Assembly: GCA_002256025.1 (NCBI GenBank)
Contig: NKIB01012722.1
Span: 1-64,000, forward strand
DNA: 64,000 nucleotides
From: Asterionella formosa
Lineage: Eukaryota
Direction of reading: 5' to 3'
The number at the start of each line of letters is the position of its first letter. Within the stretch, counting starts at the first letter, position 1. The notes below the pieces were generated by a model, which searched no databases, was not told the origin of the DNA, and saw only the letters and a program-made list of their open reading frames with translations. Made by a program: the position numbers and the translations under genes. This document shows, piece after piece, positions 1 through 61,900 of the stretch.

Positions 1-919
1 CATTTCGACGTGCATGTGTTGATGGGTACTTCCGAAGGCTGTGTGTGCCAATCAAACCATTGTTCATTCGTTTGAACTCACTACTTTCCCATACATCATC
101 ACGCAGAATTGTATAGGCCTTTCTTTTAGCATTTGATGGATTGTTGGTTTGTAGCGAAAACACCCATGGATTTTCAGGTGATGCGCCTTGTTCCATACAT
201 TCTGTCTCAAGATGAACAGCCAAGGCAAGGAGAACGCAATAGTCTTGCGACATGGATGCAATGAGTACCTGGTTTGGTGCCTCCCTCTCTTCTTTAGCGT
301 TTTTTGTCCAACACAGCTTGGCCATCAGAGTGAAAGGAAATCGAAGATTCGCAGTTAGGTTTATTTTTGTTAATTGCACACAATCGTCAATTCGGCCGAC
401 CATGTGGAATTGAAAGACACATAGTGCAGGCAACTGATACCGATGAATACTGTCCTTGAATGAATGAAGGATATGCATTGTACTGGAGAACTCTTGGGAT
501 TCTAGGGGTCGCCTTGCTTGTGATGGTTTCCCTTGTCTGCGCACTTCCTTCTTTTTTACTGCCTTGATGAGATTATTGACAGGCACAGACCTTGTTGGAT
601 TGCCACTGTGCATAATAGCATTCCAAGTGGAGAGTCGATTTGGCATAAAATACGACAATGCCTTTTTGTAGTATTCCAGGGAAGAAGACCGGCCATGTGT
701 TGGATTGTCATCATTGTTTGGATCAGGACGGCCATAGACTTTCATAGCCATCCATTTGTAGACATCCTCAGGTGTAACTTCCCCAAGTTCCTCTGGACTA
801 AACTCGTAGCTTTTAGAATATTCTATGCCATCTCTGTATGACATCATAGCAATTAGGACACTCTTGTAAACAGGGGATTGTGTAGGTTCATTTACTCTTC
901 TTGTTGGCATTGTCGCCAT
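1..919 (-). mobile_element. Tyrosine-recombinase ORF of a Crypton-like DNA transposon (306 codons, no stop, runs off the window edge)
   Basis: Manual translation from the ATG at 919: MATMPTRRVNEPTQSPVYKSVL...GRSSSLEYYKKALSYFMPNRLSTWN...GNPTRSVPVNNLIKAVKKKEVRRQG...FQFHMVGRIDD...LCWTKN...GLIGTHSLRKYPSTHARRN. It contains the box-I Arg (GRIDD) and the H-x-x-R box (HSLRK) of tyrosine recombinases. The ORF track omits it, probably because its stop lies outside the window. Confidence 0.85.
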
Positions 920-975
920 GTTGATATTTAGTTTAATTTTTTACTTCAATCCCATTTCATACCATGTTGTATCGT

Positions 976-1215
976 GGTAGAATTTCTTGGAAAATACCAT
1001 GGCATACTGCAGGGTTCCATTGGTCCGTTGGTAGAATATTCTACCAAAATGTGAAAAAAAATTCTACCCCCAGTACTACTGGGTAGAATTTTTGCCTTTG
1101 TCTATACCATATTTTCACCACGGTCAAGCAAGGGAGGGGTACCGGACAGTATTGACCTGTCCAGAGTAGAACACTACCGGAGCCCTGCAGAAAAATACTA
1201 CTTTGGTAGAATTTC
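976..1215. repeat. Cluster of GGTAGAAT/ATTCTACC motifs and palindromes upstream of the recombinase ORF
   Basis: GGTAGAATTT at 976. Perfect 20-bp palindrome TTGGTAGAATATTCTACCAA at 1028-1047. AAAAATTCTACCC-N11-GGGTAGAATTTTT at about 1057-1093. TTGGTAGAATTT at about 1203. Confidence 0.85.
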
Positions 1216-1706
1216 GTCAATAATGTATGAGTTATGAGTGACTATCAGCACCCGGATCTACGCTTTTTTATATAACGCTAGTATAGTACCGGTATCTGAT
1301 ACCTCCTATGTACCTGGTACCAGGGTACCTGGTACCCCTGGTACCAGCAGTCTACTCCGTACCAGTTAACCATGCTAGGAATCAAATGATTGAGCTGGTT
1401 CCGCTTGGCTGACCAGAAGTCATCATCAGTGAGTCCTGTGGATTTGCTTGCGCTTTTTCTTGCCAATAAATTGCAGTTCACAAGGAAACGGAACCTATGG
1501 GTTACATTTCCATCAGCTTGAAATCGACAGTAGAAACAATCCGCCTATACAAGTCTATTTATTGGGAAAAGGAAGGGTGAAAAAACAGCAAGAAGAAGTC
1601 AAGCCTCACATACTCCTCAATCCGACTCACGCCTTGAAGGTTCCTTTAGATTGGATCTTGATGATATTGGTTTCTTGACGAAACTTTGATAGAAAGGAAT
1701 CAAACA

Positions 1707-3049
1707 ATGCTGGATAGAGTAGTGTCGATTTTGGCAGCGGTGACATACGCAATTGCATTTACGTGTGCGCCAGGAATACGGCAATCCCCGAAATGGACGA
1801 CAACGTCCCTCAATATTGCTGATGTACTGGCGCCGAAGTATGACAAGCAATTGGCTGGCAGATGGGAAGAAGTGCACGGTAACTACATTCTCCCGCCGCC
1901 GATCGATCAAGGAGCCCCGCGAGCACTGTTACATTTTCTCGGAGGGGCTATTGTGGGAGCTGTTCCTCATCTTAGCTACCGATACATGCTAGAACGCCTT
2001 GCTGAGAAAGGTTTCCTAGTGGTGGCAACACCTTACAATCTCTCCTTTGATCATTTAGAAACCTGTGATGCTATAATTCAGAGATTTGAAAGAATTGCAC
2101 CCATGCTGGCGCAGCAGTATGGAGCAGTGCCTGTTGTTGGAGTTGGGCACTCGTGTGGAGCGCTATTACACCTATTGATTACGAGTCTATTCCCAGACAC
2201 ACCACGAGCAGCTAATGCCTTGATGAGTTTCAACAACAAACCTGTGAAAGAAGCTGTTCCTTTTTTCGAGGAGGTGAGTAACGTTTCAGAAAGCAAAGCT
2301 TGCAAACGATCCATTGAAATAATCGTGCTCAATCGATATGCAAGTTCTTCGCTCCTGCCTTTACAGCCCTTGCGGCAAAGAATGGAACTTTTCCCAGCAG
2401 TAATGAAGCTCTTAGGCTGAGCTTACGACTGGCCCGAGCAGCGTCAGAAGGGAATTTACCTTCAGATGATCTATTGACTGAAATTTCTAGCCTGCTGACA
2501 CCTAAACCTTTGGCTTCCTTCGCTCCTACCAACGTAATGATCCCATCTGCTTTGAGGGAGGCGCTTAAGACTATTATTTTTCCGGCTAGTGAAGCCTTGA
2601 CTGGTACTGGCATACTTCCTTTGATGAATGATTTTGTTGATACCCTTGATCAAATACCACTACTCATTGAAGAAGTTGCAAACGGGGCTCGTGATTTTGT
2701 TCCTCCTCCAGAGTTAGTGCGAGGAGCTGCAAGAAGGGCATACAGAGCAAGGAGAACACTAATTTTGGGGTATGATAATGATCCACTAGACGAATCGGAA
2801 GAGATTGAAGGACTACTGAAAGAAGCAGAGAGTGTTACTCGCATGAAACGGCCAATGATTCAGATTGATGTACAACGCAAAATCTTGGAGGGAAACCATG
2901 CCACTCCCTTACTGGCTCCACCATTGGATCTTGCATTACAAGCCGAAAATATTCTTGGTGCTGACTCAGCGAAGGAACGGCTAAATTATTCACAGGCTGA
3001 TGCTACGGTAGCTGAATTGATATGTTGGCTTGAAGAAGGCGGTGTTTAA
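1707..3049 (+). CDS. DUF1350-like alpha/beta-hydrolase, probably plastid-targeted; one intron at 2274-2344
   Basis: Motifs HFLGGA, GFLVVATPY, nucleophile elbow GVGHSCG and C-terminal GNHATP. Removing the GT..AG intron joins ORFs 1686 and 2474 in frame. The N-terminus is hydrophobic and ends in AIAF. Confidence 0.75.
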
Positions 3050-15214: not shown

Positions 15215-15990
15215 CCATATGCACTTGTCGATTTCCTTGTATCTGGATTGTCCCCAAATGAGCTGTCTACCACGTCTTGAACTCATAATTCATGTGGTGG
15301 TCTCATTTTTAATTTTCTGTTCCTTTCATCATTTGCAATGAAACCTAACAAACGTTCAACAGCACTCCAATGGGCATCACCTGGATTCTCTAAATGTTGA
15401 GAAAGTTGGTCCAACTTTCTTCACAAAATACAACAATTTTCCAACCATTGAATGATATTCTTTATGGAGAATCACTTTGTCTGGATTCGTTCTGAGAACC
15501 ATTCCTGGAAATGCTGGGGTTGATGCATCTCTTGGATACTTTCCAAAAATATCATGATAATCTTGGAGCATAACATGCACAAAATCCTCCATGCTCGACT
15601 CCAAGTAGCGTCCCACTTTATCTTGGCCCCAATTGTACCACACTCCCAAATGCTTCTTCAAAGGGCCAAGCTCCTTAATTGTGAAGTGTTTCTTGATTTC
15701 ATTTTTGAACCATTTTATATCATTTGGCTTTCCAGCAATTGCACAATCATTGACATTTGTGGCAATTATTAGGATTAGTGCATTGTTTTCCTTGATGAAG
15801 AATACACATGGATCGACCTCGCTTTGCCTCAATCCAACTTTGGTTAAGTTTTGAACCATCTTCTTGAAGAATTGTAGCGCTGCTTGAACTGTACCATACA
15901 TGGCCTTCTCCAACTTAATGCATTTGTTTTTCATTGTTTCTTGTGTTTCGAAACCAAAGTCTAAAACCCCATCCTCCTCCTCCAACCTAT
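15215..15990 (-). mobile_element. Ty1/Copia reverse transcriptase to RNase H remnant
   Basis: KLEKAMYGTVQAA, DPCVF, degenerate YVDD (TNVND), KELGPLKKHLG and SMVGKLLY. After a frameshift: HWSAVERLLGFI...VDSSFGDNPDTRKSTSAY. Confidence 0.9.
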
Positions 15991-16892
15991 TCCTCCTATC
16001 ATCACCCACCCTCTTACTAGGCAACACCAAGCCACAATCCTCATCAGCCTGAATATATGTTGAGCCATCCTCCTCCTCCTGCCAGATACTACCAGCACCA
16101 CCAATCAGCACCAGCACCAAGCATATACTATCAAGCCATTGCTCCACAGCAACCTCTACCACAAGTCATCATCACTCCAGCACCCACTCCTTGCAAAACT
16201 ATTTATGCATCAGTTGCCAACTCCTCCAGGCCCAATTTGAACATTCTTACTGACATTTCGATTCGACAACAACAAAAAATGTGAGTTGACAAGAATTCTT
16301 AATGAACATGCCTTGACAATTTTTCGCATGATTTTTCTGCTGACCCATTATCTTTTTCAATATTTATTCTTCTCCCTCTCCTTCATTGTCACGTCTTACC
16401 TGTCGTTTTCCGGTTCATACTTTGGTTGCTGAAAAACAATACATCGAATTTTTCGACATTTGTTACAATCATTTTTGTGTGACTTTTCATGCATATTCCT
16501 TCATTTTTGGTGCTGCATGCATTTTCGATGTGGCATCGATTTTTGACTCTGATTCAATACATTCAACCCCATTCAAATTTCAAACGTTCCTATGAAAATT
16601 CTACTCCTGACTTGTTTTTAACCATCCCTGGTCAAACCTAAAATTGGACTGCCGAAAAATCCAATGTGCCCCATATTGCCCCTATATGAAAAAATTACTC
16701 AGAGATACCAAAAACTACTTAGACACACACAGTTCTCATCGAAAAGCCAAGACGATAGCTAGGGTGGGTAGATCCAGTATTCCCTGTATAGTGTTTGTGT
16801 TCGACCATACTGTACATAGTTTAAAATCACTGCAGAGCTCATGATCACATCCTAAGGTTAGAGCGATATCATGATTTCAATCTTATAGTGCC

Positions 16893-19411: not shown

Positions 19412-19645
19412 CCAAAAAGCTATGAGTTTAGTTTTAGAGGGCCTTGATGAAAATAATGATAACAAGCAAACAATACTTGGCCAGTGTTCTTCCCTTGTTG
19501 AATAGGAGTGCAAAAAGGCAATGTAGTTTTCTTGTGCCAAATTGACTTTCCACTTGGAATAATATTACCCACAGCGGAAATCCAACAAGCTATGTGTCTG
19601 TCAACAAACTGGTCATCAACAAGGCCATAAAAGAAAAAGCTTACC
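19412..19645 (+). pseudogene. Decayed fragment of the Crypton tyrosine-recombinase gene
   Basis: Collinear with the reverse complement of about 545-815: AAAAGCTA.GAGTTTAGT, TCTTCCCT, AAAAAGGCA.TGT, GCCAAAT.GACT.TCCACTTGGAAT, AATCCAACAAG and CTGTCAA. It has indels and stops. Confidence 0.8.
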
Positions 19646-37370: not shown

Positions 37371-37940
37371 TCGCTAACTCAAAATTCTATTCACATGGTG
37401 CATTGAGTGTACTATGCATAATGGGTGAACCATACGCACAAATCCATGCACAATTTCATACATACATGTTTGTATATTTATAATGTGTTGCCCCATTTCG
37501 ACATCAAGCAAGTATGGCAGATTCTGGATTCCGTCCTGTGGTACACTCGTGTGTGGATTTCATTGTATGTAACTTGTTCATATCTTACCGACGTAAATAT
37601 CAATTTGTCCTGTAAGAAAACTGAAATGCAGCTCATCATGACGACCATATCCATGATGGTTGACAGTTGGTGACAGTGTTGGTGATGTATCATGCATGCA
37701 TGATTGAACGCACTGATCTGATGGGAAATGAAGATTTTATGGTGATGTGTACTTGCAATCGAGAAACAAAAGGACGTGGTAGCTGGCGTTTTTCTGGCAC
37801 AATATTATTCATATTCAAATTCATTGATTCGTTGTGAAGCCTATTGCTGGAGTTGATTTGTATGATTATTCCAATCCGGACAGACTTCTTATTTCGTGGT
37901 TAACAAGACCTTTGTTGGAAGAATCACATTTACCATTCAT

Positions 37941-40739
37941 ATGAGGTCAAGCTATGGCGCAACAGACGAGGAGCTCGGATTGGTCTCCAACTCTTTCCTC
38001 CGCGACGGCAAGCCTCCAACCGACACTTCTCCAATGACCAAGAAATCAGATCTGCTCAATGGACGAGATCATTTGGAAACGATCGCAACAGCTCCGTCGA
38101 GCAACGAGATTGCCCCCCGTTTCAAGTCCAAGGGCGGGTTTGTTTCATACCTGATATATGCCGCTGTAAACTCTATCATGTGCATTCCCTGCCTGTATGG
38201 ATACACTGCAGTGATCTTTAATAACCAAGCATTTGGACCTCATATTAATGCTCTGTCTAAGCTCGTTCTCTGGTCGTCGACGATCCACCAATTCTCGTTC
38301 ACTATTTTCTCATCGTTACCATTTGCGATCGGGCAAGTCCAAGATGCGGGTCTCATCTTTCTATCGGCAATGAGCAATATTATCGCTAATAACATTCTGC
38401 AAAATGGAGGAACCACGGAAGAGGTTGTTTCGACTACGTTGGTAATTCTGAGTTTATCCACAGCTGCATTGGGAGCGCTGTTGGTGCTTATGGGACGCTT
38501 CAAGTTAGCGGATGTCGTCTCCTACTTGCCCTTTTCGGTGGTTGGCGGCTACCTCGCTTTCATAGGATATTTTTGCCTTGAAGCGGGTGTAGCACTTTGT
38601 ATCTCGAAATCTATGATGGGAATCGCCGGATGGGCTCAGCTTTGGGACCAACAGGCGCTTATCCTGGCCGCTCCAGGAGTGGCTTGTGGTCTTGCTCTCA
38701 CTTTGGTATCTCGCAATACCGAGAATGATGTTGCGCTCCCTCTTGCCATGGTTGTTATACCCTGTGCGTTCTATCTCATTTTGTGGTTTCTTGACATTGA
38801 GCTAGCAGACGCTCGTGAGCATGGCTGGGTTGGAGAAGTAACCCCACCGGTGCCAGTCACTGACTTGTTCAACTTGGTTGACCTCAGCAAGGTGCACTGG
38901 AACTTGGTTGCTCCGTGCTTCTCGACTTGGATCGGCATGGTATTCGTGGTTTCATTTAGCTCGTGCCTCGATGTTGCAGCAATTAGTATGGATTTAGGCG
39001 AAGCGCTCGATGTCAACAAAGAACTAACAACGGTCGGAATTTCAAATTGTAAGTAATTTCATCATACCATGCTCTGATGAGAGAATAGCACTCTTACGGT
39101 TCTCGTCGTATCTACAGTTGCTTCTGGCATGACTTTAGGATTTACCGGGAGCTACATTTTCTCTCAAACTATTTTCACTTGTCGTACTGGCACAAATTCA
39201 AGGTGGGTGGGATTGCTTGTCGCCTTTTCCTTCATTGGCATCATTCTGTCCACAGTAAACATTATGGAAGTTACACCACTCTTCTTCCTTGGATCCACTC
39301 TTATCTTCATTGGTGTGGATCTAATGTACGAATGGCTTATCGAAATCAGGCACAAGCTGCTGCTCACAGAATATTGTGTGCTACTGGTCACTTTTGTTTC
39401 TATTCAAGTAATTGGTATTGATGCTGGTATCATCCTTGGGATCTGTATCTCCATAGTGGATTACGTGTTTACCACTGCGAGAGTTTCTTCGATGACACGA
39501 GTTGTCAAGCAATCTCGAGCTGTTTGGAGACATGAACAACGGCAGCTTCTAAACAAGCATGGCTATCACATCCAGCACCCAAAGATTGTGACACTCGAGA
39601 TCAAGGGCACGGTCTTCTTTGGTTCAGGCTTACAGCTTCTAAGCCAAATCACAGATGAAATTTCAATTAATGTTTCACAGGAGGATATAGATGAGATTTG
39701 TTTAAACAGTCCGAGACACATTCGCTCAAACTCAACACCAAGCCCCCTTGGAAACCTAAGAAAGTTGAAAGAGGAGCGTATGGTGTCAAATTCTCAACGC
39801 CCATACTTCAAATCTCCCCCAAAGAAGACCAGACCTCGTTTCGTAATCTTAGATTTGGCTCAAGTTCCAAACATGGACTCAGCTGCAGCTCGTGGTTGCT
39901 TTTTGCAACTTGCGCGAATGTGCTCTCGCCATCGCGTGGTTGTATGTGCCTCCGGAGCGACACCTCGAGTCGATTGGATTCTCAGGGCTCACTCATGCGC
40001 ATACGCAGCAGACGAGGAAGAAGTAGCCAAAAAGAAGTTGGAGCATCAACTTGCTAACTCAATTGATGATGGCCCTAACAAGATATTTCTTTTTGAGACA
40101 CTTTATGAAGCCCTGGAGTATTGTGAATCCAAGTTGATTTTAGAGTTGCAGCCATCCACTTTGAACTCTGGTAGCATATCTCCTGGTCGGCTCTTTGCGC
40201 CTCTTGCGATCCGTCAAGAAACAATTTCACTATCTACTGCCTTTGTAAATCTTCTTGGTCTGAATCGTGATGACACAACAATGCTGGAAGCCTTTGAAAG
40301 GAAGGAAGCACCCTTCCATGACGAGACTGAATACCATTCTGGGGAAGCCATTTTTCAGCAGGGCTCAGCATCTGATGCATTTTTTGTCGTCTTATCTGGA
40401 TCTGTTGCTGTTTTTCGAGGCGAACGAATCAGTACTGTTACTAACATCATGTCTGGGGCCGGCAATGTTCAATCTACGAGAGCTCGAAAGGAGGGCTCCG
40501 ACCTTGGCGAAGTCAATGCTTTTCTTCCTCCAGGGAGTGTATTTGGCTTTGTTGATTTCATTCTTGATCGTCAATGGGGTTTTAGTGCTGTTGCAGCAAA
40601 AGACAACACGTTGGTGGCTAGACTTCATCGAAGTGGATTAGAACGGCTCCAAGCAGAAACGCCAGAACTGAAGAATATTGTGGACACATTCTTGCTACAA
40701 GCCTCCATCTTGGAATTGTCCAATGTACACCAGCCATAA
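37941..40739 (+). CDS. SulP/SLC26 family transporter with STAS and cyclic-nucleotide-binding-like domains, paralog A; intron at 39049-39117
   Basis: Many TM segments. Motifs AIGQVQD, LPFSVVGGYLAFIG, DVNKEL and GFTGSYIFSQT. STAS region GTVFFGS...ILDLAQVPNMDSAA. cNMP region GEAIFQQGSASDAFFVVLSG...PGSVFG. Confidence 0.9.
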
Positions 40740-44360: not shown

Positions 44361-47162
44361 ATGAAGTCAAGCTATGGCGCAACAGACGAGGAGCTCGGAT
44401 TGGTCTCCAACTCTTTCCTCCGCGACGGAAAGTCTCCAACCGACACCTCTCCAATGACCAAGAAATTAGATCTGCTTAATGGACGAGATCATTTGGAAAC
44501 GATCGCAACAGCTCCGTCGAGCAACGAGATTGCCCCCCGTTTCAAGTCTGAGGGCGGGTTTGTTTCATACCTGATATATGCCGCTGTGAACTCTATCATG
44601 TGCGTTCCAGGTCTGTATGGATACACTGCAGTGATCTTTAATAACCAAGCATTTGGACCTCATATTAATGCTCTGTCTAAGCTCGTTCTCTGGTCGTCGA
44701 CGATCCACCAATTCTCGTTCACTATTTTCTCATCGTTACCATTTGCGATCGGGCAAGTCCAAGATGCGGGTCTCATCTTTCTATCGGCAATGAGCAATAT
44801 TATCGCTAATAACATTCTGCAAAATGGAGGAACCACGGAAGAGGTTGTTTCGACTACGTTGGTAATTCTGAGTTTATCCACAGCTGCATTGGGAGCGCTG
44901 TTGGTGCTTATGGGACGCTTCAAGTTAGCGGATGTCGTCTCCTACTTGCCCTTTTCGGTGGTTGGCGGCTACCTCGCTTTCATAGGATATTTTTGCCTTG
45001 AAGCGGGTGTAGCACTTTGTATCTCGAAATCTATGATGGGAATCGCCGGATGGGCTCAGCTTTGGGACCAACAGGCGCTTATCCTGGCCGCTCCAGGAGT
45101 GGCTTGTGGTCTTGCTCTCACTTTGGTATCTCGCAACATAGAAAATAATGTTGCGCTCCCACTTGCCATGGTTGTTGTACCTTGTGCCTTCTATTGTATT
45201 TTGTGGGTGCTTGGCCTTGAATTGGCGGACGCTCGCAAATACGGCTGGATCGGGGAAGTGACTGAACCGGTACCAGTCACTGACTTGTTCAACTTGGTTG
45301 ACCTCAGCAAGGTGCACTGGAACTTGGTTGCTCCATGCATCTCAACATGGGTCAGTATGGTGTTTGTCGTCTCATTCAGTTCGTGCCTCGACGTCGCTGC
45401 AATTAGTATGGATTTAGGCGAAGCGCTCGATGTCAACAAAGAACTAACAACGGTCGGAATTTCAAATTGTAAGTAATTTCATCATACCATGCTCTGATGA
45501 GAGAATAGCACTCTTACGGTTCTCGTCGTATCTACAGTTGCTTCTGGCATGACTTTAGGATTTACCGGGAGCTACATTTTCTCTCAAACTATTTTCACTT
45601 GTCGTACTGGCACAAATTCAAGGTGGGTGGGGATCCTTTGTGCCTTTTCCTTTATTGCAATCATTCTGTCAACAATAAATGTGTTGGAAGTAGCACCACT
45701 CTTCTTCCTAGGATCCACACTTATCTTTGTGGGCGCTGATCTAATGTACGAATGGCTTATCGAAATCAGACACAAGCTGCTACTCACGGAATATTGTGTC
45801 CTTCTAGCCACCTTCTTTACTATCCAAGTAGTTGGCATTGATGCTGGCATCATCCTTGGCGTATGTATCTCCATAGTGGACTATGTCTTCACGACGGCAC
45901 GCTTCTCTTCAGTCACACGAGTCATGAAGCGATCTCGAGCCGTTTGGGAACGAGACAAACGACAGCTTCTAAACAAGCATGGCTATCACATCCAGCACCC
46001 GAAAATCGTGACACTCGAGATCAAGGGCACAGTTTTCTTTGGATCAAGCCTTCAACTTCTGAGTCAAATCACAGAAGAAATTTCAATTAATGTTTCACAA
46101 GAGGATATAGACGAGATTAGCTTGAATAGCCCTTGGCACGCCCGCCCAAACCCGACCGCAAGCCCCTTTTCCAGCCTTAAAAACTTGAAAGAGGAACGTA
46201 TGTTCTCAAATTCGCAGCGGTCACTCTTCAAAATCCCCCCTACGAAGACAATACCCCGTTTTGTTGTTTTAGATTTGGCTCAAGTTCCAAACATGGACTC
46301 AGCTGCAGCTCGTGGTTGCTTTTTGCAACTTGCGCGAATGTGCTCTCGCCATCGCGTGGTTGTATGTGCCTCCGGAGCGACACCTCGAGTGGATTGGATT
46401 CTTCGGGCTCACTTATGCGCATTCGCAGCATACGAGGAAGAGGAAGCAAAACTGAAGTTGGAGCATCAACTTGCAGACTCTGCAAGTGGCAATGGACCCA
46501 ATAAGATATTCTTGTTCGAGACACTATACGAAGCTCTGGAGTATTGTGAATCCAAGCTGATTTTAGAATTGTTTCCATCCAGTCCTGATTCCCGCAGCAT
46601 ATCTCCCAGTCGACTTGTTGCTCCTCGTACGATCCGTCAGGAAACAATTTCCTTATCTACCGCCTTTGTGAATCTCCTCGGGCTCAACCAAGTCGACACA
46701 ACGATGCTAGAAGCCTTTGAAAGGAAGGAAGCACCCTTCCACGACGAGACTGAATATCACTCTGGAGAAGCCATTTTTCAGCAAGGCTCATTATCTGATG
46801 CATTTTTTGTTGTTTTATCTGGTTCCGTCGCTGTTTTTCGAGGCGAACGAATCAGTACTGTTACTAATATATTGTCTGGGGCTGGCAACGTGCAATCTGT
46901 GAGAGCGCGAAGGGAGGGATCTGAGCTTGGCGAAGTCAGTGCTTTTCTTCCTCCAGGGAGTGTCTTTGGCTTTGTTGATTTTATACTCATCCGTCAATGG
47001 GAGTTTAGTGCTGTTGCGGCAAAAGACAACACGTTGGTGGCTAGGCTTCATCGAGGAGGATTAGAACGGCTCCAAGCTGAATCACCGGAGCTGAATCATA
47101 TCATGGACAAAGTTTTGCTTCAAGCCGCCATCTTGGAGTTGGTCAACGTGGTTGAACCTTAG
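44361..47162 (+). CDS. SulP/SLC26-STAS-cNMP transporter, paralog B; intron at 45469-45537
   Basis: Collinear with paralog A at an offset of 6420, with the same motifs. Confidence 0.9.
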
Positions 47163-49645: not shown

Positions 49646-51338
49646 ACATGACCAACATGGTGCCCATATGTATTAGAACATGTATATGTACACAGGATTG
49701 ATCATGAATATTATGCGATGTCATGCATAGTTACAGCTACTAGCGTGTAGCGCACAGGACACATTTCATTATGTAGCCAAGACCTCCTTATGCATATGAT
49801 GACGTCATACCTATTGGTACATATCTACCTCTAGACTGGATGTAGCAATGCTAGGATAAATTCTAATTCTAAGTATAGAGTACAATCAGAGCTCATATGT
49901 AATAAAACCTTTGGATTATGGCCTTTGTGAGTCCCCATGATTCCCACGACTACTAACCTTGAGCTGCCTAATATAGATGAACTAATCTTGAAGCTCATAA
50001 ATTAACATTTCACAATATCAAAAGAACACCTACCTTAACCCTGACAATAATAGGGCAGTACTTGACCTATGGTACATAGGATTACCTATAGATCAGACTA
50101 TGCAAATAGCTATAATTAACCAAAACCACATAGCAACATTAACTGATCCACGAGCTCTACTAAAGTAGATACCAAATAACTGGATGGTTCTAATATATAA
50201 AGATAGTGCAACAATACACACTAATCCAGAGTCATGATTCAGTATAGACATCTAGGATTAATAGTTAGCCTAGTGAGAGCGAGAAATTACCTCTTGAGAC
50301 CACTCACTACAACGTCTGATCTCGACGTAGAGTCTCATACATTGATTCCCTAATGGTTAAAGGGTCATCTAGACTAAACTAAGACTTATACTCTGCCAAG
50401 CGGTATCCCATAAGTAATCTTTACTTAGTAATATCAAAGCTAGGATTAAACCTAGTAAAGATTAGTGAATGAACAATATTATCCTTACTAGGTCTAAACC
50501 AAGGGTACTACTAGCAAGTCACAATGGTCAATGCAGTCTCAAGGATTCCCAAATGCCCCCTTTCCAAGATTAGATCTACCCAGCGAGCAAATATTTTTTA
50601 ATAACATTTAGCTCACTCTTTTTATATTCCCTGAACACGCTTGGACTTGATCCAATAGGGATGTAGAAAAAATTCATTAGGGGAGCAACCCTGCCCACTT
50701 ATTTTATATTTCACATTAACAAGAGGAATTGAAAAGCCCACAACAAGCACATGTAAGCCACTGCTACATCCTTACAAGAAAATAATACTAGTGGCAGCTA
50801 ATACATAGGTGTGAATAAATGGATGGTAGATGGGTACCAGGTACTAGGATGACGCATGATCAACTTGACCATTGTCATCGTCCTTTAGTACTGGGTACCT
50901 GGTACCGGTATTCGTTTAACCACTCGTCAAAAACCTCGTTGGGCGCGCCAAAATCCAGAGGTCGTTGGTATCTATATTTATTATTATAGCTTGATAAATG
51001 TTGAGGTATCGATTCAGATGTGCCATGAAAACCACATACAGTATTTTACAGTGAAGTGAGAATGTTTCGGTGTACGTAGAGTACCAGTTACCACGGTACC
51101 AGTTCCCGCATCAGCATGCCTACAACATGCTGGCGTTTCCTGAAGCAACTATAGGCGCGAATTGTATGTAAATCACAATATTATTGCCGGGCAGTCAGTC
51201 TAGTGTACCAACCACCGGCAGATATAAACCGGTTTACATGTCTTCTTGACAACAAGCATTGCTTCAACTTCATTATTGATATTTCACTTTGCTAGTTGTA
51301 TCCGTTGTTTGCTGCTATTGTTTCGTCTAACCACCATC

Positions 51339-54300
51339 ATGGCGAGCAAGAAGGAAAGCACCAAGTGTAAGGCCTTTGGAACGTCAGCATCAGTAATGAA
51401 GCAAGGGTCGCTCTTTTCCTTCTTCAGCAAGAAGCCGGCTTCCATCACTGATCTCAATGGAGCGAGTGCCGGCACTACGGAATTAGCCACACGCGATAGC
51501 AAACCTGCTGCTGCTGATCTCACTTTGACTGATACGAAGAAAGAAGCTCCTCACAAGATCACTCCTTCGCCCACGATTCCATCAGATGCGACCAAGCAGA
51601 AAGTCCTACCTTCTATCAAAACCGCAGCCAAATGGCAGGACGTCACGGTCGGAGCTCGTTTACTCGTATACTGGCCCGACGACGACAAACACTATAAGGC
51701 AACAGTGTCCGCCAAGAAGAACAAAGATGCATCCATCTTCACCCTGACGTACGATGACGGGGAGATCGAACGCGTTGATTTACGGACAGAATCCTTTCGA
51801 ATTATTGACAATGATGATTTGGATCCCAACTCTGATGCGCAAACACCGGCGAAGAAGAAACGGAAAATTAAAGAAGAATCGGATGAAGAAGAATTCGAAT
51901 TCGATGCTGACGAAATGTCTGTTCAAAGTGAAGAATCCAACTTTGAAGACGATGAACAAGAGGAGGAGGAGGAAATGGAACAGTGGATGGTGACAGACGA
52001 CGAAATCGACGATGTTGTCAATACGCCGAAAAACAAAAAGAAATTTACCGTTACAAAAATTCATCCAAGAACGCCAATCTCCAAAAAGAGTCCGTCGACG
52101 TCCTCTCGCACTCCGTCAAATGCAACAACGCCTGGATCTGCTCGCTCCAGCGCTGGCAGCACGGCTGTGACGCCAACCACTCAGCGACCCACACCTGTAT
52201 CTAACAAGCCGGGATCTCCCCTGCCTTTTGTTGCTGGTGCAGTGAATCCTTCTGGATCTCACATACACAACCACCTCGCCTTTCTACGCGAACCCCGAGA
52301 CAAACAGGGCCGCGTCATGTCCTCACCGGACTACGACCCGCACACCCTTAAGGTCGATTTCAATGAACTTACACGACTCGACGGTAAGATTTCACCAGCC
52401 CAGCAACAATGGTGGGACATTAAGTCACAGTACTTTGATACGGTCCTCTTGTTCAAGACCGGAAAATTTTACGAAATGTTTCATATGGACGCAGACATTG
52501 GCGTCAAAGTCTTGGGCTTCGCGTACATGAAGGGAGCCCAAGCACATGCAGGGTTCCCAGAAGTGGGATATGGAAAGTTCTCTGCCATGCTAGTGCAGGC
52601 AGGATACAAGGTGGCGCGCGTAGAGCAGACAGAAACACCCGACATGCTGAAGGAGCGCAAAAAGTCAAAGAAAGCGGGAACCAAGGCCCCGCAAGTAATG
52701 AACCGGGAAGTCTGTTCCATCTTAACTGCAGGAACTAGGACCTTTTGTTATATGGATGACGTGGATGGACTCATGGATGGAAGCAATTATTCCAGTTCTG
52801 TTGGGCCATTGTTGGCAATTAAAGAGATTCCCGTGGAAATTAGCTCTCCGCAGGAGGATACCAACGTGCAGCCAGTGTGTGAATATGGCGTGACTATTAT
52901 TGATGCAGTCCGAGCCACCGTGACCATTGGGCAGTTTGCAGATGATATCCTGCGCTCTCGCATGAATACGCTGCTGGTTCGCTTTCAACCATCCGAGGCG
53001 AGTAGTCATATGCGACCTTTCCCCTCGTTTCCCCTTCATTGTCATTCTCACATTTTCCTTTATTTGTTTTTACAGATTTTGGTCGAGGGTGGAGAGAATG
53101 GAGCTTCTCTCACCTTGTTATCTTTGATTCAGTCAGCACAAGTCAGTTCCACTTGCAATGCTCAGGTTGAACGCATTCAGCCTACTTCGACCTTTCCCCA
53201 GTCCAACGCAATTGACGCGGCACACCGACAAAAACTTGAACGCAAACGCTCAACAATTCATCCCTGGGATGTGCAAGAAACAATCGAAGAGATTCACCGT
53301 CGAGGCTACTATCCACGTGCATCTCGTCAACAAGAGGGTCAATTCAGCACGTCGCGCTGGCCCAGAATCCTTCACATGTGCGTGGAAGGAGAAGCGCAGT
53401 TGGCTCTAGCAAGTTTTGGGGCTGCTTTATTTTATTTGCAGCGAAACCTTATCGACCAAGAAATTCTGGGAATGGGTGCTGTCCAAGCCTACATTCCTCC
53501 TGTCGCTTCGGGGACCGCTCTTGGTCCAAACGGAAGCTTAGATCATATGGCTTATCAGCAAGAGCAAGGTCTGGACTTTGAACAAGTACCTCCTATGATA
53601 CCTCATGCACGCGGGCAGGGTGAACCAGACTTTCAGTGTCAATTGAAATTTTCAGAAGAATGCAACACCAGCCACATGGCTCTGGATGGCACTACGCTTC
53701 AAAATCTAGAAATCTTGGCCAACGCAAAAACACATACATCAGCCGGAAGTCTTTGGTCCAAGATTAATTTCACAAAGACGCCTCACGGGAGTCGAATGTT
53801 ACGAGCCTGGTTATTGCGTCCTCTCTTTCGAAAAGCGGACATCGAGAGACGCGCTGATGCCGTTGAGGAGCTGGTATCTGGGGGAGCAGCTGTTGCCATC
53901 TCCGAAGCGCGCAATATATTGGCCAAGGTCGGAGATATTGAGCGTCTATTGTCTCGTGTTCATAGCATGGGTGGACGAGCAGAAGATTGTGAGCAAGGTC
54001 GCGCTCATCCCAATGAACGAGCTGTCTTGTACGAAGGAAAAACTCATACAAAGAGAAAGGTTGGTGACTTTTCAAAGGTGCTAAACGGGCTCAAGCAAGC
54101 ATGTCGCATTCCCGAATTGTTCGAAGGAGTAGATGTTCAGAGTGGACTTCTCAAGAAAATTGTTCGCCCCGTGGATAAAACAGGATGCTTCCCTGATATG
54201 GGGAGCGAACTTGATTTCTTCTTCCTGCATTTTGATCTCAAGGCCGCAGCCGAAGGAAGCTTTGAACCAAGCCGAGGATTCGACGAGTCATACGACGATG

Positions 54301-55849
54301 CATGTGATGACATCGAGCGCATCGAACGCGAGTTCGACGAGTACAAGAATGAAATGTGTGACAATCATCTTAGAAATGGGCATGCCGCGAAGTCAAAATG
54401 GAAATACATAAACACCCAACCTGAATCCAAAGACAAGTATTTCATTGAGCTTCCTGCGACAATCAGTGTTCCTGATGACTTCATTGTAAAAGGAAAACGG
54501 TAAGTACAACGGCTCACCTTTTGGTGGCATGTGCATGCTTTCCTTTCTCACCGCTATGTACTTCGTACACATTTTATGTAGTGGAAATGGGAATAACCAA
54601 GTGAACAAGTATCGTACTCGAGTCACTGAAGAAGTAAGTAATTGTAGAATGACCGCGATTCTGTCATATCTGTGACGCGACAACCTGCTCATCAAATTTC
54701 TTAGTTGGTTCAGGAGCTCGAGCATGCCCTCGATGTCCGCAAGGAAGGGAAACAAAGGGGACTGCAAATGATCTTTGCAAAGTTCGACTCCAAGCGTGAC
54801 CTATGGGCTGCCGCTGCACAATGTACCGCAATTCTTGATGCACTTGGCTCATTGGCGCATGCCGCCTCCAAGCCAGGCTTTACTCGACCGACCATTTTGG
54901 AGTGCCTCCCAGACGCGAGACCCTGTATTCATATTTCCCAAGGACGCCACCCTTGCGTCGATATCACACACAGCGGCGGACAATTCATTCCTAACAACTT
55001 GACTCTCGGCTCGCTTAGCAAGGGCGACTTTCAGAATCCACGAGTTCTTCTTTTGAGTGGTCCAAATATGGTACGTTTGGTTAACAGATATCGCGGCCCT
55101 TCCTGCAGAATTATTTTCTAATTTTCACTGCCCTAAAGGGAGGAAAAAGTACACTTCTTCGTCAAACTTGCTTAATTTCTATTCTTGCTCAGATTGGTTG
55201 CTTTGTTCCCGCCGAAGAGTGCGTATTGACCCCTGTAGATCGAATCTTTACACGACTCGGAGCCAGCGATCGCATTCTTCTCGGCCAATCCACATTCTTT
55301 GTTGAACTGGCTGAGACAGCAAGTGCCCTGCGTGGTGCGACTCGGCGATCGTTGGTGATAATGGATGAACTTGGTCGAGGAACTTCCACATTTGACGGAA
55401 CCGCAATCGCCAGTGCATGTGTTCAGCATCTGGTTCACAACAACAAATGCTTGACTCTCTTTGCTACTCATTATCACTCCCTACTCGAGGAATGGATGGA
55501 TGACCCTTCTGTTCGACTTGGCCACATGGAATGCTATGTCGAAGGGGGCGTGGACGACGACGAGGACCCCAACGATGAAGGCAAAGAGCACAATATTACT
55601 TTTTTGTACACGCTTGCCGAGGGAGCTTGTCCAAAGAGTTTTGGAATAAACGTAGCTAAGCTCGCAGGCCTTCCCGACGAAATTCTCTCCAAAGCAAAGC
55701 AAAAGAGTGCTGCCTTCGAACGTCAGATGGTGGCTGGCAAAGTAAACAGTGGTGCAAGAACCCAGGATGGCTCCCTTGAGACCCAGGTTAAAACCTTGCT
55801 TGAGAGAAACGATATGGATGCCCTTAACAAGCTATGGCTGTCGTTGTAG
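51339..55849 (+). CDS. MSH6: DNA mismatch repair protein MSH6 (N-terminal PIP box and Tudor-like domain); several introns
   Basis: PIP box QGSLFSFF, Tudor-like [10 protein letters not shown]...[38 protein letters not shown] (spliced), [12 protein letters not shown] and FATHYH. Confidence 0.95.
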
Positions 55850-55903: not shown

Positions 55904-58900
55904 TTAATAATATTGTAAAGCGGCCAGCATACTATTCTTGAACTCTATCTTGGCCTCTGGTGACATGGACTCGTAAGCCTTCTTGATACCATCGACGATT
56001 CCTTGCGTACCGATTCTGGCAGTATTACCTCCAGCAGTCATCACCTGGAACACTTCTTGAACCACGCAAGACCTCGTGTACTCAACTACCTTTTGCTCAA
56101 GGCATTCGTTGTTTTGAGCCATCCAAGATAAGACAATTTTATCGTTATCCCAGAGGGCCTCAGTCGACCGTGGGTTCTCAAGGAACCACTCTTTAATTAG
56201 AGCGCTTGCTTCAATGGGAGTCAATGCTTTTACTCCTCGGCCCACATCAGCAGCATCAATTATCTTGCGTCGTAAATCGAACTCTGCGAGCTTTCGTCGA
56301 AGTCGCCAAAAGAAGAAGGAGCGAGCGCGACTCCATTCAACTTCTCTCTCGATAACTCCGACAGCCTTCATGCGGCCAGGAGTATCGTGGAGCTCACAGA
56401 ACTGGACAGACAGTTGCTCGTACACAGGAAGAAGAGATCGCTCTCGCTTTGCAATACGCTCATTGATCACACCACGCTCCGCCTCATCAGTTTGCTCCTG
56501 GAGCTTGGCATCCAATGCAACTAGCTGATCATCTAGTCGATGCATCGTGATGATCAAATCGCTTCTTCGGTATTTTACACTTGCTGCACCGTTGGCTTCT
56601 AGGACTCCCCCTCTTGCCGTTCCCTTGGAGGCATACATTCCCATTACACCAGCATTGATGGACGCATCCAAGACAACCCATGCTCCGCCACGAATCTCAC
56701 CAAATGGAGGAATGACTACAAAGACGGGCTGTTGATAAGCAACAAAGGCATCAACAATCAAGGCACCATACTTAAGGACCTCATCAAACATATCTCTTTG
56801 GCCTCCGCTAAACCCTCGCCAATTGGCAAACACAATCAATGGAAGATCCTCAGTTCGAAAGTCGTTGATTGCCTGTGCTGTCTTGTAGGCACTATTTGGG
56901 AACCATACACATCCGGCTTGTTGGATGACCGCCTCAGACGCCTTGACATCAGCAGGATCAGCAGGCTTTATTGCTTCAGCAGTTCGGTTCTCAGTAATAA
57001 TAACACCCATAGGAATTCCACCAAGTCGAGCCCGTCCAACGACGACAGTTTTGGCCCACCCCGACAAGCTCTCCGTAAAACTTCCTTTGTCGAAGAAACC
57101 ACTTTGCCAGACTCCGCGGTCATCATCCCCTCCCGCAATGAGAAATCGAGGGTCATAGGGCACACCTGCCACTGGCATAAAATCAATCGCTCTCTCTATT
57201 TCATCAATGCCACGGATATCTGATATTGGCAACATACCCCTCCTTGTAGAAGGCACGTAAGACAACCAGTCGATAGCTGCCTTCACTGCTCCAAGATGAT
57301 CATATGCAACTAAGTGTGAAATTCCGTTTGGATACATAATTTGTGGACCACCAAGCTGATCATTGGTTGAGTAAACATCGACTCCCATCAGCTTATTCAG
57401 CGCTTGATAGCCCGTCAAAATGATAGGCGAAGCAGTAGTCCTCTGGATTGTTCGTTGACCAAGGCGAACAAGATAGGCTCCGATACCTACAGTTCTGCCA
57501 AGAACAATAGTCAGAGTGAATATTTCTTGATACGCAGAACTCGTTTCTCCTGCAATGAGACCTGACCCCTTCAAGTTCTCAACACCAAGGTCAGGCTCGG
57601 AACCAATGATATCAGTAAGTCTGTAAACCTCTTCTCCCTTGTATGTGACCTTTTCGGCAATAACTTCTTGCTTGTTCATGGTAAGCATTTCGTATATGTC
57701 TTTTGTCAAATAGAGAAAATCAAACCCATTCTCAGGCTTCGAGTGGTCTTTGAAAGCCACTTTGAACGACTTTTTAACTCGTTCAGCAAGCCCAATTCTG
57801 GCGCCTGAATTTGCCGCCACGTAAAGGCGGGGGATCTTGTGCTCTCTTGCATATTCCGACGCAAGCTTGAACACTACATCTTCTCTGGTTCCGAAGCTAC
57901 CAGCCTTATGAGTGATATCATTCGCGATCAATACAACTTGTCGTCCCTCAGGATACTCCCGGGTTTTGAGCACCATCAACCAAGCAACCATCCCAACATC
58001 GTTTGCACCAGCTCCACGATTGGTTTGCACCAACTCAAGTTTACCATCAAGATAGTCTTGCATGGTCCATGGTCCATCTGCACGCTTAAGCTGGACCACT
58101 AACTCGGAAGTGTACATAACCATCAAGGGGCGACCAGCCGCACGAATACCACCTTCAATGCCACCCTTTGTAGCAGTCTCGGTCCATTGCTGTTCGATTG
58201 CTGCTTCGAACAAAGCAGGCAAATCGTAACAGTATAGAGTATCTGACGAACTCAGTGCGTTCATTCGCTGGGCATCAAACGGACGAGTCAAAGGATAAGG
58301 TGTATCTACAGGTTGTCCCTCCCATGAGCTGTCACTGCTACTTGCGAGACTTGCTTTCGTTCCTCCGATCAACTTGAAGACTCTCTCGCCTCCAACAACA
58401 CTAATAGCTTCGACGTACGTACTCATCACATGGACATAACCCGTCGGATTGCTCGCAACAAGGCGTAGCGCGATGGGGGGAGAATCCCGGCTCAAACAGC
58501 AAACGATTCGAGCTTCCACTTCAGCTATTCCAAGACTGGTGATTCTCTCGCCGTGACGCTTCAGAATGTCAACAACAACTTGCTCTACCACCACTGGGTC
58601 GAGAACCAATTTGTCGTAATCACTGATCATATTGACGAACAGATGATTATCAGCTTTGCATTTCAATGCGACGACATCCATGGCATTCAGCGAGTCAACA
58701 AGAACTCGTTCAAAACTCGACGACGAGAACTCTAACACATAGCTCAAAGCTCGCACGAAGATCCGTGGAGATCTATTGGCTTTCTTATCTTTGCTTAGTG
58801 CAGCAGGCTTTGGGGTGGCTTCATACATATGAGCAAAGCATGTAATCGTATGTCTTGATCCGACATTTTTAACTCGAAAGTTGGTGGCAATTCTACTGAG

Positions 58901-61900
58901 GTCAAGATGAAAGACATGACTAGGCTCAATGTGTCGATATAAACTCTCTTCCTTGAACTCTGGAGAGCGGTAAGTAAAGAGCGCAGGAGGCGGGAGCTCG
59001 TTGATTCCATCTTCAAGGACCTGGTCAAGAGCAAAAGTGACCCTTCGAACGTCCGCTTGAGAGAGCAAATCATGGTACGGAGTCAAAAGTTTCTGACATC
59101 TATCGGCCATTTCGTCCATCATGTTTGCTTCAAGACGAGTACATGCGACCACGATGTAGAGAACATTGATCGGTCCTGTCCCACATGTTTCTTGAGGGAA
59201 GTTCTTCAACACAGTTTCGACTTTCGAAGCGTCGTTCAGATCCTCAATTTTGTCCACCAGACAACACACACCTGTTCGCAATGTCATGTGGGGTATATTT
59301 TCCTTGTTCGCCGTTTGTAGGAGATTATTTTCAGAATCACTATCTGCTAGGTCGGCAAGATTACTCAACGAAGCAGAGCTACTAATAATTCGTGTCAAAT
59401 CAGATGTACTCACAACGGAGGTCCCGCTGCTGAGGGCACTCTCGGAAGGCTTATTCAAAAAAGAAAACCTTAGAGACCGTGTATCAGGATGCCGTTCGAA
59501 ATCTTTCAAGGTGTAGGGTCTATAGAGGTTTCGGGTGACAAGTTCCATCCAGGCAATTTCCTCTCCAGGCGATGACGCACATTTCAAGAGTGGAAAGATG
59601 ATGTCTTGCATGGGCAAATGTTCATCCAACAAGCATGCGATGTCACGGTCGGGATGAGCGTTCGAATCACTGACAAGCTTTAAGGCCGCATCCCAAAACT
59701 TAAGTTTTCTATCCTCTATGCTTGGCATGCTGGCTTGAAGAAGTAACTTGCGTGCTTTTAGAGCAACATTTGAGTAGGCTTCAGTACCCTTCATCGCCCC
59801 AATTTCGGAAAGACACGGAAGGGCAGCGGAAAGACTTTCCGCTCCGGTGAGAATAGATACCCTTTTCCCAATTGGTGAAGCTGCACTCGTCTTCGAATCA
59901 ACTCGCGAGCCGTCGCTGACCATGGAAATTACCGTCGCAACAATTGAGGCCGTGATTTTTAGGCTGACATGGGCGCGACATATGGCCAGGATGGTTTCGT
60001 AGTCACTAGGATGGGACTTCCTGAGATTGTCAACTGCATCAGCGTATGACTTTCCATCACAAAACCAACGCTCTACAGCGATCCACCTACGGAGCACACC
60101 CAGAAATTCAACCATCGCACGCTCGGACCCAGGTACCCCACTTGCGTGGCTCTTAGCGTAAGGTATCGTTGCTTCACGGAGAGGCGTTGTAAGAACCTCG
60201 AACGCGGTCTGCTCTGCAACACTTGGGAACGACTTGGCACAATCTGCTACAAGTTGAATGATCTTGTCTGCTGGAAATCTGACGATTTCAATCGAAGAAC
60301 GAGTTAGATTTGGTCAAAATAAAAATCGCATAGCTCGGGGCAGCTCTAATTGCAATAGATCTCACCTAAGTTGAATACCACTTCCAGCGGCACTTTCGCA
60401 TTCTAATCTGAACTCCTTCAAAATTGCGGTTAGTTGGTCAAACAGACCAGCGGGAATTCGGCCGCTGAGAACAGAAAGTTGCTCATCAACTTCATGTATA
60501 GGAAGAGTTGGGTTGGTGACAGCAAGCTCTAAATCATGCAATGCTCTGCTGAGCGATGCATCGGAAAGGACGAAACCAGCCATTCCGCCTTGTATCTTTT
60601 GGATGGCCCCACGAAGCATGAGATGGGGTCGTTTAGGGCTTGACGAGTCAAATTCTGCACCCCATCCCAATACTTGAAGATCACCACTGAAAACGGTGGC
60701 AGGCGAAACATTTTCTGGGTTGTCAAGATCGAGCAAGGCTAGGATGTCACCAGGAGCAAGAGCAGCACCCTCGTTGACAATCCACGAGACAACTCCAGCC
60801 TCCTCGACCTTCAATGGCATGAACATTTTCATCACTTCAATTTCTCCGTAAGGTTCTCCTTTCTTCACTCTAGCTCCGTCGGCGACAAGCCTCTTGACCA
60901 ATTTCCCAGCTACGTCTGTTCGAAGGGAGGTTGGATCGTAATCTGGCGAGAACGCGACATTTGCACCGCCAACATTTATGCGCATGCCTGTTGCCACATC
61001 TCCCTTGCTTGTCAAGTATGCAACGTGACTTTTGCCTCCGATATCAATCAAATAACCACCATCACTCAAAAGTCTGACATTAGCGACAATACATTTACTA
61101 TCTGTTTCCGTTAGTGAGATCGAGAAAATGTTTTTACCGATACGAGTAGCGAACATCTTGTACTTAACACCAGAAAGAATGAGCTCCACTTCATTGGTCA
61201 TTGCCAGCAATGATGGAGGAGGGAGTTGTCCCTTTTCGAGCATAGAAAAGAAGTTTTTTTCGCCAGCAGCACATTTGTCAAACGCCATTATAGTTGCCCC
61301 AATAACAACATACGTGTGATTGTTCAGGGTGTTTATTTTCACGTTGGTGGGTCGGCTGAGGCGACTCTCGGCGGCTCCGATTCCATCAACATTTTCTTGA
61401 ATCAAAGCATCCAACCAGGCCGTGTCAATGTCATTGTTCACGAAATCATTCAATTCGATAAGCTTGGAGATGTAATCAACAGTGGTACTAATGTCACCAC
61501 GAATAGACAGCTCTTTGAGAGCAAGGACCATATTTCTTCTTGCCTGCTCTCTGTCGGCACCATTCGCAAAGAGATGCCCGAATTGTGAATCCGCAAATTC
61601 GTGGATAGACCCAGAGCTGTCCATACTGAAGTATCCCCAAACATTTGGTGTCGAGCGGAAATTGATCTCTTGAATACCGCCACTTGTAGGCTTAAAACCA
61701 GCTTCAGCATTCTCCGCTGTAATTCTGACCGCAATGCAGTGTCCATGTGGGGGTACCCGTTTTGCAGTATCAAAATCAATCAGTGATTTAGGTGAATGGG
61801 GTTCTTCTTCAAACCGGTTACGCCCATATAGTTCACGTATTTCAGGAATGCAGTAGAGTGGGATGCCCATTGCAACCTGCAGTTGAGCAGCGGGCAAATT

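Follow-up and report, generated by a model that had tools for sequence, protein, structure and literature searches.

The probable 5′ part of an autonomous Crypton DNA transposon at the edge of a diatom contig

What gene runs off the left edge of a diatom contig, and does it belong to a mobile element that may still be moving? The question is raised by a 64,000-nucleotide (nt) stretch of DNA from Asterionella formosa (contig NKIB01012722.1 of assembly GCA_002256025.1, positions 1 to 64,000), here called the window, which begins inside an open reading frame (ORF) on the minus strand. Window positions 1-1226, read on that strand, are best taken as the first 45%, counted from the 5′ end, of a single copy of an autonomous Crypton, a DNA transposon, in the genome of a diatom, a reading that is given a probability of about 0.88. 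An initial annotation of this DNA had described a stop-free frame of 306 codons and called it a Crypton-type tyrosine recombinase missed by the ORF list. The frame was borne out by an ORF listing with open ends and by its translation; it starts with the ATG at 919-917, has no stop and is still open at the left end of the window. Its absence from the first ORF list is likely due to the frame running off the window, as open-ended frames are omitted by default. The copy is thus interrupted by the window edge and by no mutation within the part that the window holds. A word-indexed protein database gave 109 relatives of the frame at E ≤ 0.001 among 501 candidates (best E 1.5e-132), and an exhaustive HMMER search gave 2128 representative clusters at the same threshold, 326 of them at E ≤ 1e-30. 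With this many relatives the frame must be real coding sequence and not a chance opening.

The first line of evidence for a recombinase is the set of catalytic residues. Both motifs remarked on at the outset are present, GRIDD at residues 175-179 and GTHSLRK at residues 291-297, and the frame spans the DNA-binding domain at the N-terminus and the greater part of the catalytic domain. In a 40-sequence alignment, K206, R316, W319 and Y329 are invariant in all 40 relatives, and R176, H293 and R296 are each found in 90% of them or more. The window itself holds R176 (window 394-392), K206 (304-302), H293 (43-41) and R296 (34-32), and the places expected for W319 and Y329 are 13 and 23 codons beyond its edge. 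A sister copy that is 99% identical (L001) reads RGRW(319)KRRTEQVDTY(329) beyond this point, and both residues were read in copies at 96-99% identity. The expectation that the catalytic tyrosine would fall just outside the window, following a downstream H/W residue, therefore agrees with what the near-identical copies hold. The order R..K..HxxR..W..Y is kept, in the window copy up to R296 and in the sister copies beyond. This is the canonical order of tyrosine recombinases, and in Cre and Flp, too, the fifth residue is tryptophan.

The second line of evidence is the predicted fold. An AlphaFold model of the 306-residue window fragment, built on alignment A1, reached a predicted local distance difference test score (pLDDT) of 84.6. 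It matched Cre in Foldseek with E 1.3e-6 over some 311 columns; there were 34 matches at E ≤ 0.001, with XerA, XerH and lambda integrase as the next ones. The full-length model, made from L001, had a pLDDT of 83.4, and in VIA-align its residues 136-393 matched Flp with Z 15.8 (root-mean-square deviation 3.7, 231 residues aligned) and its residues 6-318 matched Cre with Z 15.2 (deviation 3.5, 265 aligned). Lambda Int followed with Z 13.9 and Tn1549 Int with Z 12.6, while Ndc10 gave Z 13.3-13.6, residues 141-470 of the model aligning with Ndc10 182-537 at Z 13.3. All 50 of the VIA-align matches listed are recombinases or integrases of the tyrosine-recombinase fold or proteins known to share it. 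The two-domain layout of these enzymes, an N-terminal core-binding helical domain followed by a C-terminal catalytic domain, is also seen in the predicted structures, and the fold on which the initial annotation was to stand or fall was thus found in both models.

The remainder of the element was read from near-identical copies. A scan of metagenome contigs gave 129 pattern matches that resolved to 11 loci, four of which belong to the family of the window copy. L001 is 99.2% identical to the window over 1226 nt (10 differences) and has an intact frame of 706 codons, which reads ...FRGRWKRRTEQVDTYID... and ends in a GCR1_C region. L002 (98.2%) has a 2-nt deletion near codon 566 and a stop, L003 (98.0%) is open to the end of its contig and has lost its start codon (M1I), and L004 (95.7%) is 5′-truncated with a 1-nt deletion and a stop. 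The element unit comes to about 2.74 kilobases (kb), or 2749 alignment columns, and in L001, L002 and L004 each unit has a single long, intronless frame and no reverse transcriptase or DDE domain.

In the 706-amino acid (aa) protein of L001, GCR1_C is the only Pfam match (21.7 bits, E 2.4e-4, just below the 23-bit cut-off). Full-length relatives measure 610-710 aa, and 17 of 18 carry GCR1_C at the C-terminus at E ≤ 0.01, nine of them reaching the Pfam gathering cut-off. The full-length model places the recombinase up to about residue 345, an alpha/beta extension at 346-450, a long helix at 482-547, predicted as a coiled coil, and a helical C-terminal domain at about 610-700, with the GCR1_C DNA-binding domain predicted at about 609-675. 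The extension, which is modelled confidently and follows the catalytic tyrosine, can be aligned with C-terminal portions of Flp and Ndc10, and the helix that precedes the GCR1_C domain is a single one of about 65 residues. On these models, the enzyme is a tyrosine recombinase of a eukaryotic, Flp/Ndc10-like type that ends in a GCR1_C tail.

These same copies bear on the possibility that the recombinase is one part of a larger element, such as a DIRS-type retrotransposon, a Polinton-like or giant-virus insertion, or a DDE composite like MarCry. Tyrosine recombinases are also found in DIRS/Ngaro and virus-like elements, and the window shows only one end of its element. MarCry-1_FO is a Crypton fused with a Mariner element (Kojima and Jurka 2011, PMC3212892). 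Such an origin is nonetheless very unlikely in view of the end-to-end unit of about 2.74 kb with its single long frame, the GCR1_C tail, which is a Crypton feature (PMC3212892), and the upstream neighbour in L001, a further Crypton of this kind with 71% similarity. Viral contigs queried with the 706-aa protein gave 24 pattern matches and no relative, in a search that detects close relatives only and so tells little about relatives carried by viruses.

The 5′ end of the element is well fixed at window 1226. Similarity to L001, L003, L004 and L005 starts exactly there, with ACATTATTGACGAAATTCTACC..., and contigs from each of the four sequencing runs compared over window 1-3200 depart from the window sequence at 1226/1227 with differing continuations. 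The flanks beyond this point are not alike: that of the window copy is peculiar to it, L005 carries a different one, and in L001/L003 and in L004 the preceding sequence is the 3′ end of another Crypton, which makes at least three unrelated 5′ flanks at one end point. The five nt to the left of the 5′ end also vary between copies (CTCAT, CTGGC, CCGTG). The 3′ end lies outside the window and reads ...GGGGGTAGAATTAATTGTCAATACTGGC in the sister copies. Window flank 1227-1700 was considered as the 3′ end of another Crypton and rejected, as only the GGTACC-rich piece at 1307-1347 matches.

The element ends are imperfect inverted repeats of about 23 nt, with no long terminal repeat (LTR) and no long terminal inverted repeat. 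Cryptons also have short direct repeats of 4-6 bp at their termini, a feature that is hard to judge where, as in every case seen, the 3′ end abuts another Crypton 5′ end. The 5′ end is laid out as ACATTATTGAC-GA-AATTCTACC and the 3′ end as GGTAGAATT-AATT-GTCAATACTGGC. Where two copies stand head to tail, the junction is a composite palindrome of 47 nt with the element boundary at its centre; the arms GTCAATACTG/CATTATTGAC are 10 nt long, 90% complementary and 3 nt apart, and the arms GGTAGAATT/AATTCTACC are 9 nt long and 100% complementary. Judged by its sequence, the head-to-tail palindrome looks like a recombination site. L005 gives a head-to-head case in which the 5′ end of this family, in reverse orientation, lies directly against that of another subfamily (CACGGTATTGATC...), placing TCAATA and TATTGA 9 nt apart. 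The 8-mer ATTCTACC has eight matches in the 64 kb against 1.78 expected, a number reached in none of 100 shuffles, and six of the eight fall in 976-1212. Window 975-1226 is common to other Crypton subfamilies (L001 1-52 matches window 1026-975), and its summed depth is 2-3 times that of the gene.

The metagenome loci hold further Cryptons. At least three other subfamilies, at 66-78% nucleotide similarity, were found in L001 (300-2439 and 2724-2827) and in L005-L008. They stand head to tail or head to head with the family of the window copy and share with it the terminal 100 nt or so of the 3′ end or a 5′ end of the TATTGA type. GGTACC-rich stretches like the one in the window flank recur in L001 (48-150, 2576-2681), L005 (2497-2830), L006 (598-787) and L007 (1812-1993), where they sit in untranslated parts of other Crypton subfamilies. 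In the deep sequencing run X1, the bin 1285-1391 that holds this stretch has a depth of 18212 against about 750 further out, some 24 times the flank.

How many copies there are was approached from summed contig depth and from protein clusters. In X1, whose contigs match the unique flank without any difference at a depth of 734-768, as many as 3831 contig pieces fit window 1-1300 (1896 at ≥99%, 1496 at 95-99% and 439 at 90-95% identity). Summed depth over the gene (1-963) was 177k-290k, or 240-390 times the flank, and over 964-1177 it was 505k-712k. At 90% identity the protein cluster has 165 members; six of the 15 listed are 682-706 aa long, and no fewer than four other distinct frames in the cluster measure 703-705 aa. 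The representative of the cluster differs at two positions from the 306 residues of the window and so is another copy and not the window locus. All that can be said is that the family is multi-copy, with between several and a few hundred copies, since summed contig depth is not a copy number and X1 disagrees with a second run, X10 (see below). The call of a Crypton-type recombinase thus drew support from fold, catalytic residues and multi-copy state alike, and the description of the element as young was supported by the pairwise identity of 95.7-99.2% among five copies.

The multi-copy state also answers the suggestion that a single-copy syntenic gene would point to domestication. Under that explanation, the frame would be a Crypton-derived host gene with a cellular DNA-binding function, comparable to yeast Ndc10/Cbf2 and Gcr1 or the animal DUF3504 genes. 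In its favour, Crypton recombinases are on record as having been domesticated (Kojima and Jurka 2011, PMC3212892), the predicted structure is like that of Ndc10 (Z 13.3-13.6), and synonymous changes are in excess in the window copy, as given below. It is an extremely unlikely explanation here, as the gene is not single-copy: it has at least three flanks at a fixed end point, contigs that diverge in four runs, a 165-member cluster, and frameshifted and truncated sisters. The inverted-repeat ends and the copies that abut each other argue the same way, and the family keeps all six catalytic residues, most of which domesticated forms lose (PMC3212892).

Several results weigh against the reading of window 1-1226 as part of an autonomous Crypton and are best considered together. 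Sequence searches missed the recombinase altogether. The window frame had no recombinase match in Pfam, where only noise was returned (Vein_beta-barrel, E 0.068; DUF6538, E 0.18), and the comparison with phage-integrase profiles proposed in the initial annotation failed, with no Phage_integrase (PF00589) match in the window frame or in the L001 706-aa protein. Among full-length relatives one of 18 had such a match, below the cut-off (18.2 vs 27.1 bits), and among 15 shorter relatives there was none. A phmmer search of the window frame against PDB returned no matches, and a 21-sequence profile returned 12 at E ≤ 10, none of them a recombinase; the best of these, GDP-mannose dehydratase (E 0.048), was taken as a chance match. 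What carries the assignment, therefore, is predicted structure together with the order of the motifs. Further, the tryptophan and tyrosine of the window copy itself lie outside the window, their position being taken from sister copies, and the 3′ end is never seen beside ordinary host DNA. All three readable 3′ ends run directly into ACATTATTGAC, a Crypton 5′ end, and in L002 the sequence departs from this family after those 11 nt, so that the 3′ end is fixed only to within 11 nt. Only one of the four copies readable past codon 306 is intact, one being open without a start codon and two frameshifted. In X10, a run of low coverage with the same flank, the depth was 19-20 over gene positions 1-963 (one bin 52.5), 38-76 over 964-1177 and 2-4.8 in the flank, which puts the gene at only about 4-10 times the flank versus 240-390 times in X1; several flank bins were not covered, which reflects low coverage only. 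No circle, empty site, insertion polymorphism or transposition event was seen.

Expression belongs to the same balance. Part of window 1-1400 is contained in 20 of 24 sequencing runs, six of which are RNA libraries with 28-49% of the sampled words. RNA run X16 has one 789-nt contig over 107-892, with a Crypton depth of 10.2 against 5-8 for the neighbouring gene, and RNA run X15 has four contigs over 52-1201. X16 contains real RNA of the host, because the intron of the neighbouring DUF1350 gene is spliced out in it; in X15 the contig of that neighbour also covers intergenic DNA and the intron. The RNA contigs over the Crypton were not counted as transcription, since the gene is intronless and multi-copy and trace DNA could give the same result.

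Tyrosine-type recombinases of eukaryotes are known to diverge strongly in sequence. The missing Phage_integrase match is a limit of the Pfam model and not of the fold. Pfam being blind to this recombinase, the label that the gene would receive in annotation is "hypothetical".

A more serious rival holds that the window copy is a dead member of a recently extinct family, unbroken in the window by chance, damaged beyond the edge and with no relative still moving. Broken sisters are indeed common: L002, L003 and L004 are all damaged, relatives P0002 and P0007 are frameshifted, nine of the 15 cluster members listed are shorter than 500 aa, and X1 contigs carry internal gene deletions of 41-545 nt (within window 60-673). 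The failure to observe any transposition event fits as well. Private changes, scored against the majority of five copies, speak to this point, five copies being a weak test. The 306 codons of the window copy have three non-synonymous and seven synonymous private changes (binomial P 0.0019 against a neutral share of 0.773), a bias that is unexpected under neutral decay. L001 has one and two, respectively, and the damaged L003 (9:3) and L004 (17:6, with disabling changes that include the stop) are near-neutral. The pattern fits descent of the window copy from a lineage still selected as a working gene, within the limits of so weak a test. Together with the intact 706-aa frame of L001 at 99% identity, the further 703-705-aa frames in the 90% cluster and copies that differ by as little as 0.8%, it makes a dead copy rather unlikely. 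The "possibly active" of the initial annotation keeps its "possibly"; activity would be in keeping with the intact frames of 703-706 aa elsewhere and the 3:7 ratio of private changes.

Deletion forms of the gene were met in two data sets. In relatives P0085, P0100 and P0054, the N-terminal residues (about 145) are joined straight to the coiled coil and GCR1_C, with no catalytic domain between them. These forms, and the X1 contigs with internal deletions, may be derivatives that keep the DNA-binding parts only.

How would such an element move? The mechanism proposed here follows current ideas on the action of tyrosine recombinases and Cryptons. The recombinase would bind the imperfect inverted repeats at both ends, the inner and outer arms being candidate binding sites for it and perhaps for its GCR1_C domain. 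The element would be excised as a circle, and the joined ends GTCAATACTGGC|ACATTATTGAC would together make a composite palindrome and act as the recombination site. The circle would then integrate without DNA synthesis into palindrome-like sites, with the ends of resident Cryptons as preferred targets, which would explain both the head-to-tail and the head-to-head arrangements. At the window locus, an empty site would continue from ...CATAACTCAT straight into what lies on the left of the 3′ end. We infer the circle, the site preference, present activity and the wholeness of the window copy; for excision as a circle and site-specific integration, the palindrome at head-to-tail junctions is indirect evidence. 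To our knowledge, which comes from no dedicated literature search, no bench experiment has ever shown the circle-and-integrate mechanism. A bolder reading would be of an unusually prolific autonomous Crypton, active today in natural populations of diatoms, whose near-identical copies number tens to hundreds, integrate into their own palindromic end-joint, build head-to-tail and head-to-head clusters and leave deletion derivatives with the two DNA-binding ends of the protein; this is possible, and is held tentatively.

Where does the family stand among known systems? Flp of the yeast 2-micron plasmid and Cre of phage P1 are the best structural matches and share the catalytic order, the tryptophan at the fifth position and a palindromic site with inverted arms. 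They differ in sequence (10-13% identity) and in lacking the coiled coil and GCR1_C that this family adds, and they serve a plasmid or phage with one site, whereas the family is a transposon with many genomic sites. Integrases of the Tn916/Tn1549 type, which work through a circular intermediate, have in common with it a tyrosine recombinase (Z 12.6), imperfect inverted-repeat ends and variable bases beside the ends. Their elements are bacterial, large and conjugative, unlike this one, and no sign of a heteroduplex joint was seen in this family. Ndc10/Cbf2 and Gcr1 of budding yeasts share the recombinase fold with a C-terminal extension (Ndc10) and GCR1_C, but they are single-copy host genes that lack the catalytic residues, whereas the many copies found here belong to a family in which all six are retained.

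No class of eukaryotic DNA transposons is less well understood than the Cryptons, whose boundaries are hard to find and whose copy numbers are usually tiny, and the CryptonF elements reportedly go back to Goodwin et al. 2003. Cryptons in stramenopiles, including one diatom, were published in 2011 (Kojima and Jurka 2011, PMC3212892). There, CryptonF is defined by a recombinase with GCR1_C, Ndc10/Cbf2 and Gcr1 are traced to it, and its elements are listed from fungi and oomycetes only, at 2.5-5 kb, with 6-bp direct repeats and 2-24 copies per family; its short, specific termini are taken as recombination substrates. The family of the window copy has the same single gene with a recombinase followed by GCR1_C, the same size class, no LTRs, short specific termini that are likewise read as recombination substrates, and stramenopile hosts (oomycetes in CryptonF); its model resembles Ndc10, which is traced to CryptonF there. 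It departs from CryptonF, as described there, in its diatom host, in its termini, imperfect inverted repeats of about 23 nt here and 6-bp direct repeats there, and in a summed depth that suggests far more copies than 2-24, an uncertain estimate.

CryptonS is described in the same source as lacking GCR1_C, at about 2.5-4.7 kb, with a conserved C-terminal region and termini that are mostly TATGG, others being TTACTG, TAATG and CTGTAAG (PMC3212892). Stramenopile hosts with a diatom among them, size, and a recombinase with a C-terminal region are shared with these elements, among them CryptonS-1_PTri of Phaeodactylum tricornutum, but in the family of the window copy a GCR1_C match is present, and the element ends read ACATTATTGAC... 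and ...GTCAATACTGGC, not of the TATGG type. The conserved C-terminal region of CryptonS may itself be a GCR1_C domain that escaped the models of 2011. Placement between CryptonF and CryptonS by eye, in the alignment of Additional file 4, was dropped, as motifs of both resemble the family about equally. By domain layout, and not by phylogeny, the family is CryptonF-like and not CryptonS as Kojima and Jurka define it. Autonomous Cryptons are given there 1-30 copies, with four for the sole diatom family (Additional file 1, PMC3212892). Elsewhere, Crypton is among the repeat classes of Cyclotella cryptica (PMC7466962) and of Fragilariopsis cylindrus (a preprint), and a survey of introner elements mentions Cryptons (PMC12130899); copy numbers and termini for this family were not found in those parts of the diatom literature that were consulted. 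The family is a new one of a known kind, a good and well-preserved example and not a new kind of element.

The coordinates of the Crypton and of other features in the window are collected in Table 1. The degraded Crypton remnant at 19445-19638 is 76% identical over 175 nt to window 564-725 (blastn), and the Copia-type frame is a fragment of an LTR retrotransposon. The earlier remark that every other transposable element (TE) coding remnant here is degraded holds for these two pieces, both of them fragments, and was checked in part only. The two transporter paralogues are each split into two long frames, presumably by an intron, and the window also encodes a Kelch-BTB protein. The carboxyltransferase part of the acetyl-CoA carboxylase is most similar to those of Cylindrotheca closterium and Seminavis robusta (81%) and of Nitzschia, Thalassiosira and Cyclotella (78-80%), and the host is therefore a diatom.

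Table 1. Positions, strands and basis of the features found in the 64,000-nt window
Feature	Position	Strand	Basis or detail
Crypton recombinase gene, first 306 codons	2..919	minus	open frame, relatives, conserved residues, fold, sister copy L001
5′ untranslated and terminal region, 307 nt	920..1226	minus	six ATTCTACC/GGTAGAAT 8-mers at 976-1212
5′ terminus ACATTATTGAC	1216..1226	minus	inner half-site TATTGAC 1222-1216; outer half-site AATTCTACC 1213-1205
Insertion flank outside the window copy	1227..1347	no strand	GGTACC-rich low-complexity stretch 1307-1347, itself repeated
DUF1350 gene	1686..3049	plus	71-nt GT..AG intron 2272-2342
Partial Copia-type reverse transcriptase, 261-codon frame	15377..16162	minus	RVT_2, E 6.9e-16, profile 103-229 of 244
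Degraded related Crypton remnant	19445..19638	plus	tblastn E 1.3e-8, 57% over 42 residues; matches residues ~85-124
Sulfate-permease/STAS/cyclic-nucleotide-binding (SulP-STAS-cNMP) transporter, first tandem paralogue	37896..40739	plus	
SulP-STAS-cNMP transporter, second tandem paralogue	44361..47162	plus	
MutS-family gene	51246..55849	plus	domains I, III, V; two long frames
Acetyl-CoA carboxylase, full multi-domain	55904..62833	minus	two long frames

For genome annotation, the locus illustrates that the edge of a window can conceal the best-preserved TE gene of a region. For the Cryptons, an intact gene, a sharp 5′ end, a palindromic junction and many young copies would make a biochemical or genetic test feasible, and if the family is as prolific and active as the bolder reading has it, its 47-nt site and 706-aa enzyme would be the first practical system in which Crypton excision and integration could be followed directly. 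For the diatoms themselves, a recently amplified DNA transposon of this kind is a possible source of variation at the level of strains.

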